A stretch of DNA of 62,318 nucleotides, the filler included, from Globobulimina sp. (taxonomy: Eukaryota), in assembly GCA_003354225.1 (NCBI GenBank). It is 19 parts of 19 records of this genome, joined end to end, with 100 filler letters (N's around TTAATTAATTAA, not from the genome) between each part and the next. Parts side by side here need not be neighbours in the genome. Positions count along the whole stretch, not along the records: positions 29,589 to 32,773 come from PIVH01003471.1; 18 more parts are not named here. The stretch is one strand, 5' to 3'. The translations under genes were made by a program, and so were the position numbers. The notes beneath the pieces are model-generated. The model worked only from the letters and a program-made list of their open reading frames with translations. It had not been told where the DNA came from and did not search any database. Position 1 is the stretch's first letter. The number at the start of each line of letters is the position of its first letter. Of the stretch, positions 7,587 to 58,651 are shown piece after piece.

Positions 7587-8960
7587 TTAATTTTGAATAT
7601 CATGATATGACACCGAGCATGAAGTGATAGGAAAAATCCTCTTCTTAAATAAATTGGGATAGTTCTCATAACTTTGCAATGGTTTTGGAATCTTATGCGA
7701 CATTAACGATAAGCCGGCCAGACCCATGTAACCATGCAATATGTCACCATACGGAATATGTGGCAACTTCGCAAAGCCACCAAACCCCGATTGGCACAAA
7801 AGATTAAAGATGCGATTAAATCGATGATTACACAAATTATAAAATTCCTTATCACCGCAATGATAAAACTGCTTCAAATCCATCATATCCATCACATTGC
7901 CATCGCCCACCTCCTCCCTCTTTTTCTCCTCCTCTTTCCCTTCAGATCCGCCACCAATCTGTTTGTACGAAGACAACATTGACAGCACCGCACCGCACCA
8001 AAAACTATAACAAGAATCCGCCGGTTTTTCCGGCCGTCCCTTAAATCCGTTGCCTTGGTTGAATAGCAACCATCGCAGCAACGCGTCCACCTCAATCCGA
8101 TGCAACTTATTCATCAAAACCAAGGCGGCCACCCCGACAAAAGTGGAGCCGCCATGTCCTTCAAAGTGGCGTCCAAACCCTAACGAACCGTCATACGCTT
8201 GGCAGCCACAGATAAACTCCGTCGCTTTCTCAACATTGACACCGCTCCAATCATCCAACAAATGCGAGATGACACAGGCACAATAAATAAATCTCAAATC
8301 CACTTCGCCGTCACGCATTGAGCAGAATGCCCCGGTCAACGGGTCCTGTAACTCGCGCATTGTGGCGATGATCCCGGCTCTGTCCAAACGCTGCAAGTCG
8401 TCGCCTAAGCCGACCAACATACAAATCGCATTGTGCGTGGACGCCATGTTAACTCTGTCCCACTTATTGGTCACTGTCACCGTGCTGTTCTCAAAGGGGA
8501 TGCCGAGGAAGGAGCCGCCACGAAAGCCGCCGCATTTGATGCCCGTATCGGTGCTGCGCACAATTTGTTGCGCATAGATCCAATTTATGATATCAGTCCG
8601 CTCTTTTTTGAGGCTCTCACATGAGTTGTAATATAAGTTGAGATCGCATAGTATGTCGATGCCGAACACGCTGAAGAATAACAACGTCATTCGCTGTACG
8701 TCCATGGCGGCGTATTGCGAGGGCGGTGTCTCAATCATGGCGCGAAAATACGACAAATGAAGGTCGGGATCGAATTTGTGCTGTTCCAAGTCTTCGAATA
8801 TGCCGATGTCTTCGGCGAAGGTTATGTAGATTGGCAACTTTTCGGTGTTGATTAACTGTGAGATTTGTTGTAGAGTATGGAGCTGGACATCAATTTCTTG
8901 GATTTTTAGGATGCGTTTGCCGATTAAAGATAATAGTTTGTTGTATTGGATCTGTGCCAT
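7587..8960 (-). CDS. PGGT1B: Geranylgeranyltransferase type I beta subunit
   Basis: RMTLLFF, GGFRGG, GEVDLRFIYCA, EGHGGSTF, GRPEKPADSCYSFW (Zn ligands D, C), DILHGYMGLAGLS; likely ATG at 8960. Confidence 0.9.
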   Translation of the reverse strand: MAQIQYNKLLSLIGKRILKIQEIDVQLHTLQQISQLINTEKLPIYITFAEDIGIFEDLEQHKFDPDLHLSYFRAMIETPPSQYAAMDVQRMTLLFFSVFGIDILCDLNLYYNSCESLKKERTDIINWIYAQQIVRSTDTGIKCGGFRGGSFLGIPFENSTVTVTNKWDRVNMASTHNAICMLVGLGDDLQRLDRAGIIATMRELQDPLTGAFCSMRDGEVDLRFIYCACVISHLLDDWSGVNVEKATEFICGCQAYDGSLGFGRHFEGHGGSTFVGVAALVLMNKLHRIEVDALLRWLLFNQGNGFKGRPEKPADSCYSFWCGAVLSMLSSYKQIGGGSEGKEEEKKREEVGDGNVMDMMDLKQFYHCGDKEFYNLCNHRFNRIFNLLCQSGFGGFAKLPHIPYGDILHGYMGLAGLSLMSHKIPKPLQSYENYPNLFKKRIFPITSCSVSYHDIQN

Positions 8961-9263
8961 GGTGGTGGTGCTTGTGCCGGTGTTTGGGTTTGGGTTTGGT
9001 GATGATGCCGGCGGGCTAGGTTTGGGTTTATCGATGGCGTAAACGTAAGTTATTCCATTTCGAGATCCTAAGCGTAATCCAAAGGGACGGGATCGAAACA
9101 CCTGTACCGTTTCTGTTGGGTATTTTTGTGTTTTGGTTTATTGTGATATGTGATCGATGCGTGATGGTAGAACCTGGAGGTATCTTTTTTGAAGCCATGC
9201 TCAAGCGAAGGAAAATACGTCTAACTAAGATTGAAAACAGCTTAAATAAATCTTTTTGCAACC

Positions 9264-23824: not shown

Positions 23825-25797
23825 ATGACTAATTTCTTAATTACATTACTATCGATTATTGTATCTTGTCGTGGAGAGTCCCTATTCGACCCAGACCGAA
23901 TCATTTTGAATGACGGTGATGACATTCTTATCATAGCTCAATATTGCAACCATACCGTAATCTCAAATGGCGACTTATACCTCAATATGACCGCAGTTTG
24001 TTTTTGTTATTTTAACCCAGATTCAGGCAATGCGGAGTGTAGCATCCCCGGACCAACCTTGATAATGTACAACGGCACCTCAGTCAACGTGACCTATGCC
24101 AGCGACTTATATGGAGCCCGCGACATTTGCGCCAGCGAAGAAACCTGCGATGAATTCAATTGGTTTACAGATTTAGATGTGTTTAACATGCATCTTCATG
24201 GCGTCTACATCGATCCGACAGGTTACATTTACATAATTTGCATTTTGAACCAACTTAACACATACTTCACAAACCAAATTTTTTGTATCTGTTTGTTTGC
24301 CACTTTTTTGTATCCCGTCTTCCAAAAAAAAATATGTACACAGTCGGACATGATGACGTTGTGTTTACTGACATCCGGCCAGATTTCGACAACATTACTG
24401 GCGATGTGCAGCTTTATAATTACCCGATAATCGCGGAACATTATCCCGGCACTTTCTGGTATCACACCCACCATCACGGCGCCATTACCTTCCATTTAAG
24501 TGTCGGTATGTTTGGTGCAGTATTTATAGAGCATCCGGACGCAGACTACGCCATCGATGCCATCAAAGACAACGTGTTATTTTTCTCGTGGATCCAAGCC
24601 GTGAATGCCAGCACTTGCTTACCGTGCGGCGCTGACAGCGGTTATCGTGGCGGAGTGCCAAATCTATGTACAATTTATTGTTCCTATCCGGAGTCAAAAC
24701 GCAATGTTTCCGGCTATACATACGACGTCAAATCAGATTTCGATGACATGGACTTATTTTTGGTGAATGGGCAGTATCAGCCGGACATTGATGATATGTT
24801 CGTGGATACGTACCGTCGTTTGCGTTTTGTGAACGCTATGGAAGGTTATTGGATCCAATACAAATTTCCTGCGGCTTGCGATTGGTATCAGGTGGGTGCG
24901 GATGGCTACTTTTTGGAGGACACTTTGGATTTATCCGCGGCGTCGCATGCGAATGAGTTGATTTTGCCGATGGGCGCCAGAGCTGACGTGTTGGTGAAAT
25001 GCGACACTGCGGGAACTTATGACATATTGTCCTCGCAAACTAACACTCAAAGCACAGAGCTCGCCAATTTGAACCGCATCACTGCGGATATTGTGCTATT
25101 CTCGCTGGTGGTGAGTGAGTATGATGAGCTTAATACGGATCCACGTAACAATGTGACGGCTTTACCGGCAAAGGCGTCGTATCCTGCAAAGCCGTATTAT
25201 TTATCGAGCGATATTTCCAGCGATGACGATTTGCTCCGAAATTGTGTGTGTAACTCTTATGATGACTTACTTGCAGACTTAGCAGGCAGTGAACTCGAAG
25301 ATGGCCGGTGTTTCATCCAAATGCATGGCACTAATTTAATGAATGGGTTTCCCTTCAAATTGGGTCGTCCCATCACGCAGTTACAGCCAGACAGTAAATT
25401 CGAATTTACCTTTTATCCGACAAACGGGCATATTTTGCATTTGCATCAGTTTCCGATCCAGGTTCAAAGCGATATTGCCAGCTCTTTTATTGCCGCAGCT
25501 TATGAGTGGAGGGATACTGTGGGGAATTATGACAATTCGTGGAAGTTTAGGTTTTATACATATGATTATCAGGGCGCGATTGTGGTGCATTGCCATGTGG
25601 TGAGGGACGCGGATATGGGGATGGCGACGTATTTTGTGGTGACAGATGGTTTATGCAATCCTGTGGATGTTGTAAATGTGAATAGTTCTTCTACAGAGGC
25701 ACCAGAACCGACACCTACAGAGGCGGACAAAACTGGCTCTGTTTTCAATTCAATGTTTGTGTTCGGTGTAGTTAGTGTTGCTGTGTTGGTAAATTAG
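23825..25797 (+). CDS. Secreted/membrane-anchored multicopper oxidase, 2 exons
   Basis: Signal peptide; NMHLHG, GTFWYHTHHHG, HILHLH, HCHVVRDADMGM; intron 24222-24343; S/T/P linker and hydrophobic C-terminus (GPI/TM-like). Confidence 0.9.
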
Positions 25798-29152: not shown

Positions 29153-30191
29153 ATTATAAATCGTCAGAAATCTTCTTTTGTGCATGTGTAAACTAGTTTT
29201 TTTGTGTTGAGATCAAAATATAAAAGTCGTCTGCAAGTGTCGTTCATGTCACTAAATCAGGCGGGGCGGACGCAACGATTGTAACATGGAGAGGTCACGT
29301 GGGTAATGATCGGAGATAATGCATTTCAGTATTTCGTCAGTAGTAATCATCCGTATATTCAATCTTTTGATTAAAGAAGATTAAAAGTAAAAAGTTTGTG
29401 GATTTTGGATCTTTTTTGAATTCGTCTCTACCCATAAACCTATAACAAACGTATACAATAAGTAAACAATTGTAAACAAAAAAAGAACNNNNNNNNNNNN
29501 NNNNNNNNNNNNNNNNNNNNNNNNNNNNNNNNTTAATTAATTAANNNNNNNNNNNNNNNNNNNNNNNNNNNNNNNNNNNNNNNNNNNNCTAATATATTTT
29601 CTTTTTGTTTTTTCTTTTAGTTTTTTTACAATTAAAAAATAATAATATTGTATAAATATATTTAAATAACACAGCAAAAGATAAATTAAAGTAAATTAGA
29701 CACGAAAAGTAATAAGAAATTTCTTGATTTGTCTGTGTTTGGTGGGTTTGAGTGAGTGTTACAACAAAAAGGGGTACAAAGGAGTGCATACATGGATGTT
29801 TGGTGTGTTATGGGTGGTATTACGAAGGTGGATCAAGGCGATGATACACAATCACTGATTCGGCGTGAAGTATTTGTGTGAATCTTGCGTTTGTGGTTTG
29901 GTGAAGTGGTGAATATGATGACCGCTGTCTCGGCGCTGGTTCCTTGTCTTCTTGCATTAAGGGGTTGCAACAAAGAATAAACCGTTTTAGGCTAAAAAGG
30001 AGTTGGTTTCTTTTGTTTGGGAGGGATGTAGAGTTGATGTAGGAGAGTGAAAAAGTTTGAGGTTTTTTTTGTTGATTATAATAAAACTTTTTTTTCGTTT
30101 CTAAAAGTGTCCTCGTGTTAATCATCCAAACACCGCTTCGGATTTGTCAACAACGGACGGAGAGTGTTAGCTAAACTCTGCAGATCGTACT

Positions 30192-31503
30192 ATGCCAGAA
30201 GTAGCCGACTCATTGTCGAATTTGTTATTCCTCGATAAAAATGCATACAGACTCTGGATAGTTTTATTCTTTTCATATTATACCGCCTCCATCATCACCG
30301 ATACATTATTATCCATTCAAAACATTATTTTAGGTCTCTTCATCAACCTCGTCCTCGCCCTAATCATCGATATTTTTTATTATTTTTTGCATATCGCTTA
30401 TTACGATCCGCCCACTGCAGTGGTTCGCGGTTACTGTGTCAGCGCTTTTTGTAACGATACCTTGCATTCAAAAGGCATCGATTACGGCTTTAATTTCTAT
30501 GATGGAGATTACAATAAAACCGCCAAGAATGCACAAATTGACAAATTCAAATTCGCCATCAAACATTTGGGCATCAAAAAAGGTAATGACATCCTCCATA
30601 TTTTCATTATAAACGCACAAAAATACGCGTTGTACTCACAAATTACTCGAAATCAGCCTATATTTTTGCGCATTTATACTGAAAGGTGACTCCCTGATTG
30701 ATATTGGCTGTGGTTGTGGTGACTGGTTATCCTATTTACAGAAGGAGATGCAATGTCGTGTGGTGGGTGTGAATATCACCGAAGTGCAAGCCGTTGAGTG
30801 CCGCGATCGTGGCCTAACGTGTTACGGCACCGACTGGAAAAATATTGCACAGAACGAAGAGTTGAAGCAAGCATTGTATGGCAAATTCAACTTTGTGACT
30901 TTCTGGGATACGGTGGAACATTATGTGGCGATGGGACAAGGTTTAAATCGCAGGGAAGACCGCGCCGTTATATATCAAGACATGTTCAAATTAGCCGACA
31001 ATTTATTGACCACAGAGGACGCGAATAAGCAAAATCGAATTTGGATTTCATGCTTACATATGAGAAAAAGGATATTTTCGTATGACTTTTTATTTCATCC
31101 CATTAAATATTACGCTTCGTTCAAAAAGATGTTTAATTTATATATTGTGGATAAATTTCATTCTGGTTTTTATCCTTCGTATTATCACGAATCGGATGGG
31201 AAATGGCACGATGAGTTGGTGGACAATGCCAAGGTGACGGGCTTTGATTTACATTTTAGGAAAGATGTGACTTTGGACTATTATATGACGTCTGTGATTA
31301 ACGCGACACATTTCGGCCGACATAGATTTAAATTGACGTTTAAACGGATTGTGGCTTTGATAGGTTTATATTTCCTCGATCCATATTGGTTTCATCGAAT
31401 TGTATGGTTTTTTCAAGAATCGTGGATGTTACAATTTGATCCCAATGATATTAATGATTCAGATACAATTTTATGGTGGTTAGTTCTTGAAAAAGCAAAA
31501 TAA
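30192..31503 (+). CDS. SAM-dependent methyltransferase, cyclopropane-fatty-acid synthase-like, N-terminal TM helices, 2 exons
   Basis: AQIDKF..LGIKKG|DSLIDIGCGCG, VVGVNITEVQ, DTVEH; intron 30583-30685 restores SAM motif I. Confidence 0.8.
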
Positions 31504-31763
31504 GGAAATAGTTTTGTTATATGTCCATTATGTTGACAGTGGCAGTTGTTTTCTGTCGCAGTTGTTTTTTGTTTTCGTTTTCGTTTTTATTCATTTCTTC
31601 CTTGTACTATCCTATTTTTTGTCTTTTTATGGTAGAAATTATGACCTTGATGTATGTATATTTTTTTATATTAATGATGTCGCGATTTATAATTATCATA
31701 ACGTTGAGTGCAAGGACAGATCGAGTATTCTAAAAAAACGAGTGAAAAAACCTTGTATTTATC

Positions 31764-32773
31764 ATGGTTCTCAACAAAACAAAATTCCACAGGTTCCTCA
31801 ACAGAACATCAATTAACAGTTATTCTACTCATATCAAAGTTGCATCAATCGACGATTTACGAGCATCCATTTTACAAAAATCTGGTTTGGAATACATCAA
31901 CAATACCAAATTGGAATACAAATCAGTATACAATTGGAAACCATGCAGTGATATTTTAAAAAGTAATAACAAAATGAAAAATATTGAACAATTATCAAGC
32001 CATGATTTGTTAAACGATGTACCGGCTGTATTATCCCCGCTATTACAAGATTTTGACCTACACCGAATGCAACAATATCGACTGGATCGCATCCGTCAAT
32101 CATTACGGAGCAATAACTGCGATGTTGGTTTATTCTTTGACCCAACAAATATCCGATATATTACTGACGTGCCAAACATGCAAGTATGGGTTAAAGGGAA
32201 TCCATTCAGATATGTCGCAGTGAGTGCTGACGAGAGAGATCCTTTGTTATTATTTGAATTCAAAGCTTCAGAACATTTAGGCACGACATTAAGACCTGAC
32301 ATTATTGAAACAGCGCACCGATCCAAAGTGCCACTGTTTATTATAGATACACAAAAACAGCAACAGCAATTAAGTCTGTTTATAACCGATCTAATGCAGC
32401 AAATCGATTTACATTTTGTGGAATTACGGGACAATAAATCTAAAATAAATTTGTCTGTGGATGTAGGCAGAACCAATGTGCTCATGACGTTGATGAATGA
32501 GCCACGTTTAAATATAATGGATGGCTTTGGCATTGCTGAAAAAGCGCGTTTGCGCAAAAATAACGATGAATATCTATGCCTGAAACTAAGTTGTGAGGTG
32601 GCCAATATTGCAACATATCGAATGAGAGAGTATCTGCATACACATATGGCGAATGGTGATGTTATTACTGATAATGAAATATTTGCCATTCTGAGCGGCA
32701 CCAATGTGGAATATGGAGGTGAATATTTAGAATGCAAGTTATTAGGTTCTGGACAAAAATCAAATCCATGGTA
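31764..32773 (+). CDS. dddP: M24 (creatinase/aminopeptidase P fold) protein resembling DMSP lyase DddP, 3'-truncated
   Basis: DLHRMQQYRLDR, FDPTNIRYITDVPNMQVW..NPFR, EKAR..K..DE, GGEYLECKLLGSGQKSNPW; parallels remembered DddP motifs FDPLNIRYATDSTNMQLW..NPFR and GGEWIETRLLASGPRTNPW. Confidence 0.72.
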
Positions 32774-33451
32774 NNNNNNNNNNNNNNNNNNNNNNNNNNN
32801 NNNNNNNNNNNNNNNNNTTAATTAATTAANNNNNNNNNNNNNNNNNNNNNNNNNNNNNNNNNNNNNNNNNNNNACCTTGAGAAACGTTTCTATCTACAGC
32901 GGGACAGAAGAATCGCAAAGTTCTAAAATCCCAAAAGTCTATGAATCCTAAAACATGAACGACAATGATTATGAAAATATGTATAATAATGGCTTTGCTT
33001 GTTGTTGAACCATCCATTCATAAAATTCTGAGGTTTCATCAACATTATTATGCTCTCCACTATATCCTGTTCCTTCGACATTAAAACTCATCACTTATAT
33101 TTGCAAAAACACTTTGAATATCGCAGGCTGGAATAAGTGGAATTTCAAATTAACAAATAATATTAATCATATTTTTTTGTTCAAAAAAATCAAAACAAAA
33201 CGCAAGTATTTTGAACCAAAAAAAAGGCAATGAAGACTGAAATAAAAAATAAACAAATACATTAAACAGCAAAAAAAATCAAACAACCAAAAACGTAACG
33301 AATATGCAAGTGAAAGAAAGTAACTTGACATTATAAAGCACACTACAAAAGTACAAAATATTCAACACAACAAAAAAAGACAATATATTTATTGAAAACA
33401 ATTGGATTTATATTTAAAAATACATATTTTCATCTGACACATTACTCATAT

Positions 33452-55854: not shown

Positions 55855-58651
55855 CAAATACGTGCCTGGTTACGAGAATATTATCGCTGATTATTTATCA
55901 AGAAATGGTCTGTTCAAAGAACATACCGAGAACAGCATAATTATAAATGAATCGAGAGAAGAGCGCAAGGCTCGAACACATGACATTTTGTCATTATACT
56001 TAACGCATTTTCAGAGACAGATTGTGACCGATTCACGACACGACAATGCCGCATTGATCGACGATGTACAAACACTTCCACGGCACGTAATTAATTCGCA
56101 TGAATATGATCAAAATCCGAGAATAAATGCATTAAAATTAAATTCGTCATCGATACGAATTGATTTAAATCCGACATTAAAAATAAATTCGATCCATTCG
56201 ACTGGATTAACACATACTGAATTTAATGAATTTGATGAGTTTTATCATCAAATCACTGACAAATACCCGACGCAGCTACACAATTCATACAATTTGCGTG
56301 CATTAACGGCCATAAAATGCCACGCAAATTCGCATAATGTACATCATAAAAATGATCTAAACCACGATAAAATGGGTTTAAATCATTACAGAATGAGCCC
56401 GGAACATAACTTAATTCATCCGGACCATACACAAATTGATTCGGCCCATGACGCAAATTCGCATAATGTCGACTCAAATTGTAATAGAATGAGTTTGGAT
56501 CACGATGAGATGGTCCCGGATAACGATGAGATGGTCCCAGATAACGACTTAATTCACCCGGATCATAATGTAAATTGTCCAGATCGCGCTAATCCGGACC
56601 ATAGTTATGTACTCAATTTGAACGACGACGAATTAGATTCGGATGACGAGATTGCAACCGATTGCGATCAGGGCCCATTTGATAGGCCATTCTATCCCGA
56701 CTATGATGAATCAGATGCGACTTCACTCGATACCGATGTCATTATGGATGAATCGGAAGGTTCAGACCCACCAACACCACGAAGCCATGAAAGAGGTAAA
56801 GAAGAGCGGAAAGAGGAAGAGTTTTTAGATGAATTACTTGAAAAACTTCAGAAGTGGCGGGTGTTAGTTACACATAAAAATAAAAAGAAACCACAACACA
56901 AACTACAACAAAAACAACCAAATAAACCTACACAAACAACAAAACCTAAACAAAAACAAATAGAAACACGTCGCAGATCTGCAAGACTCCGAAATAAAAT
57001 ACCTGCAAATCAAGATCAAGATATTGCAGACTCCAAATTGATAGAAATTCCCCATATTGACGATGTCCATGATATAAATAAACAGAAACTATATAAAGAG
57101 CGCTTGGATGAAGCACTGAAGCTAAATAACCAAATCCTATCATATAAACCGAATAATCCCATCCATAATCTTGATACAATCGATCCCATTCCATCCCAAA
57201 TCCTCGATAGATATTACCCAAAGCATATAACTCCGGACTTAATACTTCAAAAACAACAATCCGATCCATGGCTATATGGCATAATCCAATACATATTGAC
57301 TGATAATACAAACTTAATACGAACGCTCCCTAAGTATTTATATCGATATGTATTAAATGGGAAATACATATGCAATGATAAAGGATTATTGTTCTATAAA
57401 TATAAAGAGAATGAATATAAAATAGTTATACCTGATACTTTGCGCAAATCCATAATGAAGAACGCCCACGATTTGGTCCATAACGGTAGCGGCAAAATGT
57501 ATGCATTGATTTTGAACGATTATTGGTGGCCGAAAATGAAACCCGAGATTGGGAATTACTGCAAAACCTGTATTGGATGTCAATCAGTAAAAGGTATACA
57601 GCACAAACAAAAACGAGGAACGCTTAACTTGTTCCCAGCGACGCGACCATTTGAACAGCTTAGCGTTGATATTGTCGGTCCACTGCCTAAAACCGACGAC
57701 GACTTCCAATATTTAGTAACTATAATTGATAAGTTCTCGCGGTATTGTATGATAATACCGGTTAAGGATACTTTGACGCCAACAGTGATACGAGCCATTG
57801 AGCGGTGGTACACTACTTTCGGTCCACCAGAGTCCATATTATCCGATAACGGCTCGCAATTTCTATCAAAGATATATCAACATTTTCAAAATTCAAACAA
57901 AACAAAAATAAAATACATAACTGCTTACCATCCAGAGTGCAATGGACAGATCGAACGATTGCACCGATGGATAAAAGAAAGATTGGCATTGCTCGCTCAC
58001 GATTTAGGTTTAGAATTTGCTGTTGGTAAAGCTTACCAATGTGATAATTGGTCGCATTACATCCCATTGATTCAATATTGCTATAATACGATGATAAATA
58101 GAATGACTTTGTATACGCCGTTTGATATCGTTTTCGGCTCAAATCCTCGAGATATGGATGTATTGCGATGCGACCCCAAATGCCCTGATATATATAGGAA
58201 ATATATGGCCGTACGAATAAAATTAATACACGATAAGGCACGAGAAAAGCAGCAAAATTATGATAAGATACGAAAGAAATACTATGATAAAAATAGACAT
58301 AAAATAAAGATTGAATTAAATGACTTATTAATGTATGATATATCTCAAAATATGACCAAGAATGAACGGTCATTGATACCGAACTATGTTGGTCCGTATA
58401 AAGTGATTGATACGATGAATAATAATAAGACTTTGAAGATTCAAGATATTGATAAATTATATAGCCCATTTTGGACCGATATAATGCATTGTAAGCCATA
58501 TCATGATGGCCATGAAAGTCCAACCGATGCATTATTAGTATATACAATATATAATATTGATAATATACAGAAACGTATTGGCGATGAAATAAATGGAACA
58601 AATGATAAAGAGATACTATACAAATTAAGCCTGCTGAGTATCATGCAATAG
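55855..58651 (+). mobile_element. Ty3/gypsy-type LTR retrotransposon pol, 3' part (RNase H end + integrase)
   Basis: PGYENIIADYLSR; HHCC (AHD..H..CIGC) with YWWPKM; DIVGPLP, SDNGSQF, HPECNGQIER; GPY/F module YVGPYKV. Confidence 0.93.

Follow-up and report, generated by a model that had tools for sequence, protein, structure and literature searches.

Whether a heterotrophic protist encodes a DMSP lyase of the bacterial DddP type is the question raised by a reading frame in the genome of Globobulimina sp. (GCA_003354225.1), which an earlier note, made from the sequence alone, had described as DddP-like rather than as a generic Xaa-Pro aminopeptidase. The window, meaning the whole stretch of 62,318 nucleotides analysed here, consists of 19 contigs of approximately 3.2 kb each joined by spacers, and the frame lies in the contig occupying positions 29589-32773 (G000:C3471), which is followed by an artificial, non-genomic spacer (32774..32873) that separates unrelated contigs. 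Our best reading is that the gene is a long-resident, bacterially derived beta-elimination lyase of the DddP type; DMSP would be its likeliest single substrate, even if we give this somewhat less than an even chance.

The frame runs on the plus strand from 31764 to 32771, encodes 336 amino acids that open with the peptide given in the earlier note, and meets no stop up to the contig end at 32773; its ATG is the first methionine codon downstream of an in-frame stop. Based on sequence searches and contig cover, the interval 31764..32773 (336 codons and 2 bases) represents the 5' two-thirds of a DddP-like M24B gene. On the same strand, residues 1-29 (31764..31850) form a basic, hydroxylated extension that is a candidate mitochondrial presequence, and residues 30-94 (31851..32045) form a segment kept solely within the eukaryote-type clade described below, with no sequence alignment to the N-terminal appendix of DddP. 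These are followed by the N-domain (32055..32555; DddP residues 51-206), where the codon at 32187 specifies Trp142, the counterpart of what we take to be Trp95 in DddP numbering, and where a Gly stands in place of the near-invariant His98, and then by the beginning of the pita-bread catalytic domain (32562..32773), as far as the NPW motif (DddP 275-277). Contigs from sequencing runs X5 and X6 start at 31744 and 31737, respectively, without loose 5' parts. A single difference, A31836C (Lys25 to Gln), was found in X1, X5, and X6 and is probably an assembly error or an allele, and run X6 carries a 6-nt in-frame insertion after 31788 that leaves the frame intact. A search of the genome for another copy was negative, each half of the gene giving one match; a second match to a 15-nt pattern (C33026) was considered as a copy and dropped, as it lies in no homologous frame.

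The earlier note had placed the metal ligands beyond the contig end, and they were recovered on another contig of the genome. Searching the genome with the C-terminal part of a relative identified a contig, G000:C30511, that encodes 180 amino acids followed by a stop, with 67-78% identity to four relatives and with all six ligands present, and positions 2-544 of this contig (L002) likely complete a protein of 517 amino acids by providing its last 180 codons and its stop. The end of G000:C3471 and G000:C30511 abut exactly, with no overlap, and the junction reads Trp-Tyr-Gln-Glu, as it does in the relatives P0002, P0003, and P0006. In run X5, the stretch 31744-32773 is contained in record 16, which shows 2 differences there and extends 614 letters beyond, and one X6 record extends 429 letters past the contig end; reaching the stop in G000:C30511 needs 544 letters, with which the X5 extension is compatible by length alone. 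Because no contig spanning the join was found among those searched, a result that is uninformative either way, and because the X5 and X6 extensions are known by length only, we infer the join. The contig end also resembles a GT donor, and this codon is where the relative P0274 breaks as well, so that an intron at this position, or a mixture of forms, is possible; we prefer direct abutment since it yields the expected Trp-Tyr-Gln-Glu.

With regard to the origin of the gene, it had been argued from AT-rich codons and from the presence of an intron-containing gene on the same contig that the frame belongs to the host, and the second of these arguments proved to be sound. Immediately upstream, and ending 260 bp before the ATG, lies a spliced SAM-dependent methyltransferase of 402 amino acids, weakly CMAS-like (30192..31503, plus strand), whose 103-nt GT..AG intron (30583..30685, plus strand) is skipped in contigs from X5, X6, and X7, not in X1, and whose removal restores a single 402-residue frame. 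These three runs come from studies other than that of X1, the possible source run, their status as RNA being deduced from the skipped intron, and their contigs also cover the DddP-like frame with approximately 94-100% identity. The codon argument held only in part: the GC3 of the frame (0.34) does fall within the range of 17 host frames (0.24-0.56), but AT-rich bacterial homologues give similar scores, so that codon usage by itself excludes little and was rejected as stand-alone evidence of host origin. A bacterial contaminant, or symbiont DNA mis-joined to a host contig, would fit with these codon scores, with the lack of introns in the sequenced parts of the gene, and with the fact that, among the X1 pieces listed, none bridges 31422-31642. 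This explanation, however, is hard to reconcile with X1 depth being comparable over the methyltransferase and the DddP-like gene (3.5-6.6), with the occurrence of the frame in three other studies where the neighbour is spliced, with an identity to bacterial proteins of at most 42% in the aligned region and 49% in the C-terminal half, and with closest relatives (63-79%) that include a EukProt protein and gene calls broken in the manner of intron read-throughs. We therefore regard contamination as extremely improbable, and the gene as a real and probably complete nuclear gene of the host.

The closest proteins are P0002 (66%), P0003 (68%, from EukProt), P0004, P0006, and P0274, followed by P0005 (41%) and P0010 (51%). 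In P0004, P0005, P0006, and P0274 homology is lost abruptly, which suggests, as judged from the protein ends only, that introns were read through. Members of this eukaryote type were not found in GTDB, viral contigs, phages, or JGI metagenomes, where the best match reached 49%, and residues 1-100 gave no match in the Atlas.

Several other features of the window and of the same contig are worth recording. The methyltransferase has a hydrophobic N-terminal region and a weak likeness to cyclopropane fatty acid synthase. The stretch 29589-30055 is covered by X5-X7 contigs that skip 29733-29791, bounded by CT..AC as a minus-strand intron would be, and neither a clear open reading frame nor a Pfam match was seen there. 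Elsewhere in the window, prenyltransferase and multicopper oxidase frames (7587-9101 and 24283-25797) have GC3 values of 0.56 and 0.49, well above those of other window genes, and a retrotransposon-type integrase frame (rve, Integrase_H2C2) lies at 55862-58651 on the plus strand.

As for the family to which the protein belongs, all 4 of the 4 PDB sequence matches at E<=1 were DddP chains (E 1.8e-27 to 2.8e-25), and the best NCBIfam match was the DddP model NF043017 at 126 bits, followed by ectoine hydrolase at 23. The AlphaFold model of P0003 (pLDDT 87; 68% identical to our protein) superimposes on DddP with a Z score of 43 and an rmsd of 1.9-2.0 over 416 residues, compared to Z scores of 32.6 for prolidase, about 29-30 for DoeA and creatinase, and 25.8 for Icp55, and creatinase was matched in the PDB at E 1.7e-5 versus 1e-65 for DddP. 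The appendix of DddP (residues 10-50) gave no profile alignment, the profile match beginning at residue 79 of P0003, and structural overlap starts from model residue 41 with DddP residue 28, at low pLDDT (43-71 over residues 30-94). The preference for DddP over a generic aminopeptidase is hence supported by sequence, profile, and structure matches, but these do not establish membership in DddP proper: the equivalog cut-off of NF043017 is 600 bits, and the two halves of the protein score 126 and 134, and full-length relatives 288-291, all below it, the full-length relatives by about half.

A similar picture emerged from the active site. Nine DddP positions are kept, namely Trp142, Asp354, Asp356, Asp366, Tyr435, His440, Asp446, Glu475, and Glu490, corresponding to Trp95, Asp295, Asp297, Asp307, Tyr366, His371, Asp377, Glu406, and Glu421 of DddP; the metal ligands, Tyr366, and Asp377 sit on G000:C30511, and their assignment to this gene relies on the join discussed above. 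The six metal ligands (Asp295, Asp297, Asp307, His371, Glu406, and Glu421) are present in L002/P0009, P0002, P0003, and P0006, and all nine residues in P0002 and P0003. The available portion of PMC4108388 describes these ligands, together with Tyr366 and Asp377, as invariant in DddP, while that of PMC5395565 reports that DddP has Asp and Phe where M24 peptidases have two histidines and, reviewing Wang et al. 2015, that the sulfur is held in place by a Trp and a Tyr. The motifs thus match DddP, as had been noted from the sequence, but they are common to a large and uncharacterised family of bacterial DddP-like proteins: all nine occur in 17 of 18 core DddP rows of our alignment versus 58 of 172 other DddP-like rows, which makes them not diagnostic of DddP. 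Rhizobium and Paraburkholderia proteins, in fact, also hold all nine, and soil and nodule bacteria are among the 58. The Cys376-Asp377 pair is as in the core (Cys in 16/18 core rows and 61/172 others), and His98, which is replaced by Gly here, is found in 17/18 core rows and 149/172 others. Of 15 core-diagnostic residues the eukaryote-type clade has only 3; at the 10 columns that discriminate the two sets, it agrees with the non-core proteins in 7 cases and with the core in 2. Identity reaches 42% to non-core rows compared to 29-39% to core rows.

Phylogenetic analysis did not place the gene within DddP. Clustering outside DddP had been named in the earlier note as an outcome that would refute its reading, and this is what all four trees show: the eukaryote-type clade branches separately from the core, in the company of numerous bacterial DddP-like proteins that are uncharacterised, even though AU tests (31 rows) reject neither a grouping of the eukaryote-type proteins with the core (p 0.27) nor their nesting within it (p 0.09 and 0.07). 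In the most careful tree (54 rows; LG+C20+F+G4) the clade has 100/100 support and a long stem (1.06 changes per column), the core, supported at 100/99, excludes it, and no bacterial group is resolved as its sister. The core in these analyses was delimited after the first tree and consists of stand-ins that pass the cut-off and their neighbours, with no assayed DddP included, and the trees hold no fungal DddP; the first tree omitted 109 of 316 profile matches for short coverage, and another omitted 8 of 76. An attraction to an AT-rich bacterial clade, seen in the first tree (AU p 0.62), was set aside as compositional (FYMINK 0.342 versus 0.346). The bacterial DddP-like family is a broad one: 25 of 121 sampled genomes have a match and only 3 exceed the NF043017 cut-off, and among plasmids there are 187 records whose match extends over 80% of the query, the 219 matching records being mostly from Rhizobium and Sinorhizobium. 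Two bacterial genomes (G105 and G099) carry 9 and 5 DddP-like paralogues, some in tandem and none above the cut-off. For fungi, the portion available of PMC4304780 sets the DddP of Fusarium and Aspergillus inside the dddP clade, where SAR116 dddP is its sister, and ascribes it to bacterial transfer. Because the fungal proteins lie inside the dddP clade and the protist clade lies outside the core, the two acquisitions were likely separate, and the protist gene belongs to a eukaryote-type branch of the DddP-like family that was likely acquired independently of fungi.

The N-terminal extension had been described as basic, hydroxylated, and acid-free, and this is correct, as the first acidic residue of our protein (P0001) is residue 30. 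The suggestion that it is a mitochondrial presequence is plausible within the close subclade of P0001, P0002, and P0003, but the feature is not conserved across the clade as a whole. In these three proteins, which are all of the close members having a full N-terminus (3/3), the first acid is at residue 30, 42, and 30, and R-10, R-3, and R-10 motifs are seen, respectively, compared to a background of 1 and 0 of 51 windows. In our protein what we take to be an R-10-type MPP motif is at Arg10, and the extension resembles presequences in general in being basic, hydroxylated, acid-free, and amphipathic, with a best 11-residue hydrophobic moment of 0.71. Across the 17 host frames, 67 of 4693 windows of 28 residues lack Asp and Glu and have at least 5 Lys or Arg. 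P0004, P0005, and P0010, on the other hand, have acids at residues 5, 14, and 8 and no motif, although their starts are perhaps miscalled, and no extension is present in P0005 and P0010, which are distant members. Overall, we lean slightly towards predicting that the protist protein is targeted to mitochondria.

The surroundings of the bacterial homologues and the host genome itself were also surveyed. Within flanks of 1.5-4 kb, genes for methylamine or betaine catabolism neighbour 11 of 32 non-core bacterial loci versus 1 of 7 core loci, the markers being trimethylamine methyltransferase, dimethylglycine-dehydrogenase-like proteins, Rieske proteins with a reductase, GlxA-type regulators, betaine ABC transporters, and homocysteine methyltransferase. 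In a second set of loci, which left out L133 because it nearly duplicates L110, such markers were seen in 2 of 15 (L112 and L114; 61 of 91 open reading frames scanned). In Rhizobium, Paraburkholderia, and further genomes, the DddP-like gene stands beside a Rieske oxygenase (L011, L012, L016, and L112), accompanied by a reductase in L011 and L012, and L011 has genes for GlxA, hydroxyproline epimerase, and a betaine ABC transporter nearby; we consider these Rieske-adjacent loci a candidate betaine catabolic module, as yet uncharacterised. In L082, L095, L097, L102, L110, L112, and L117, genes for thioredoxin-TPR, LON substrate-binding, Trm112-like, or GBBH-like_N proteins lie upstream, and at some loci of this cluster a P-II or ammonium transporter gene lies downstream. 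Since no bacterial sister group is resolved, however, bacterial context need not transfer to the protist gene.

In the host, 26 exon-like BCCT matches on 14 contigs (L074-L077), with up to 8 contigs covering a single profile position, indicate that this betaine/carnitine/choline transporter family is expanded and split by introns; the near-identical L074 and L076 may be alleles. Carriers of the BCCT type take up both betaines and DMSP. AcuI was not found above its cut-off in this fragmented assembly (best 91.5 versus 297), a point against DMSP cleavage. Mitochondria may dispose of acryloyl-CoA via general hydratases. The presence of Alma1, searched for through PF01177, was not supported: the three racemase-family matches (L051-L053) are aspartate-racemase-like, and DCGF/NCGF and ECTE/ECTQ motifs were not seen in their available parts. 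In another host contig (L056; G000:C6429), two ubiquitin domains are each directly followed by a Cys-initiated segment that presumably resembles a Hint domain. At the 8 loci read out of 22 ubiquitin matches no polyubiquitin junction was seen, and a first look under stricter settings gave no SSU rRNA match.

If the gene is a DddP-type lyase acting on DMSP, its chemistry would likely follow that of DddP as set out in the available portions of PMC4108388 and PMC5395565: the enzyme, a homodimer having a binuclear centre of mainly iron, would bind the carboxylate of DMSP, a Trp and a Tyr would hold the sulfonium, and Asp377 (Asp446 in the protist protein) would take the alpha-proton, with beta-elimination freeing DMS. 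Cleavage of DMSP and of DMSOP are the sole activities mentioned for the family in the portions available of PMC5395565 and PMC10686828. That cleavage of DMSP to DMS and acrylate, possibly in mitochondria, is the real job of the protist enzyme is a tentative proposal, which we would not yet call probable. The same type of elimination might act instead on another methylated onium osmolyte, for example converting beta-alanine betaine to trimethylamine and acrylate, or on an intermediate of a betaine pathway, with DMSP at most a side activity. The branching of the protist clade among non-core proteins, the methylamine and betaine markers at their loci, and the import of betaines by BCCT carriers, as judged from family names, all agree with such a substrate, and the DMSP-lyase activity of DddQ has been argued, in the portion available of 10.1101/161257, to be a side activity. 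However, the markers were sparse in the second set, where many loci lie in a housekeeping-like cluster, and no such activity was found in the openly licensed literature, and we thus consider this alternative rather unlikely.

Another alternative would be a metal-dependent hydrolase of small-molecule C-N bonds (amide or amidine), similar to creatinase or ectoine hydrolase, in which the binuclear centre activates water. Creatinase and DoeA do share the fold, the non-core family is uncharacterised, and some bacterial homologues adjoin isochorismatase, hydantoinase, or amidohydrolase genes; DoeA models, however, give no more than 23-25 bits where the cut-offs are 575-613, and two features of DddP according to the available portion of PMC4108388, Asp297 as sixth ligand and Asp377 as base, are both kept, which leaves this function quite unlikely. 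An Xaa-Pro peptidase, or a mitochondrial processing peptidase like Icp55, is suggested by the M24 fold, the possible presequence, and the automatic naming of many relatives as "Xaa-Pro", but the two substrate-binding histidines are replaced by Asp and, in relatives, Tyr (positions 377 and 278, as deduced), the peptidase family models reach 36-40 bits versus 393-630, the Z score for Icp55 is far from that for DddP, and the host genome has other M24 genes (17 matches). We find a peptidase function very unlikely.

Returning to the DddP-type lyase as our preferred reading, a history can be proposed in which a bacterial DddP-like gene was acquired long ago, independently of the fungal one, and a presequence was gained within one subclade, with the substrate coming from algal or bacterial food, perhaps via the expanded BCCT transporters of the host. 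Taken as a whole, namely that heterotrophic protists acquired the gene anciently and separately from fungi, added introns and a presequence, and cleave dietary DMSP with the help of their expanded BCCT carriers, this scenario is unlikely to hold in every part. Should it be true, it would represent a third eukaryotic route to DMS and make grazers a direct enzymatic source of DMS in sediments. In the portions available of PMC10349084, PMC10686828, and PMC9327192, eukaryotic DMSP cleavage is ascribed to Alma1 of algae and corals and to fungal DddP, and no report of a protist DddP was found in the openly licensed PMC and bioRxiv literature, even though subscription papers and supplements could hold one. 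If a heterotrophic protist did have a DddP-type lyase, this would be a grazer-encoded source of DMS that present gene surveys miss, because it scores under the DddP cut-off. If, on the contrary, the substrate is a different one, the gene would still be a clean and expressible entry point to a large family of uncharacterised proteins, which could inflate or confuse environmental dddP counts.

Among known systems, the closest is DddP itself (EC 4.4.1.3), with structures from Ruegeria lacuscaerulensis (PDB 4RZY, 4S00, and 4S01) and Roseobacter denitrificans (4B28). The two-domain M24B fold, the six metal ligands, Tyr366, Asp377, and Trp95 are in common, and the peptidase histidines are absent from both; the protist protein, however, is only about 30% identical, reaches half of the NF043017 cut-off, branches apart from the core clade in the best trees, has Gly for His98, its own N-terminal segment of 65 residues, and a candidate presequence, and is encoded by a eukaryotic, nuclear gene whose activity is predicted only. 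The bacterial DddP-like M24 proteins, such as those of Rhizobium leguminosarum (WP_012755283.1), Paraburkholderia (BEI72063.1), and Parasedimentitalea (WP_127751439.1), have similar NF043017 scores (about 210-480 bits), show the highest identities to the protist protein (up to 42%), and often keep the nine residues, but lack the eukaryote-type N-terminal segment, and none is resolved as sister. Fungal DddP is likewise a dddP-type gene in a eukaryote, yet it differs from the protist gene in lying inside the dddP clade. Lastly, Alma1, the algal DMSP lyase, would have in common with the protist enzyme the eukaryotic conversion of DMSP to DMS and acrylate, if our best reading holds, in spite of an unrelated fold, that of the Asp/Glu racemases.
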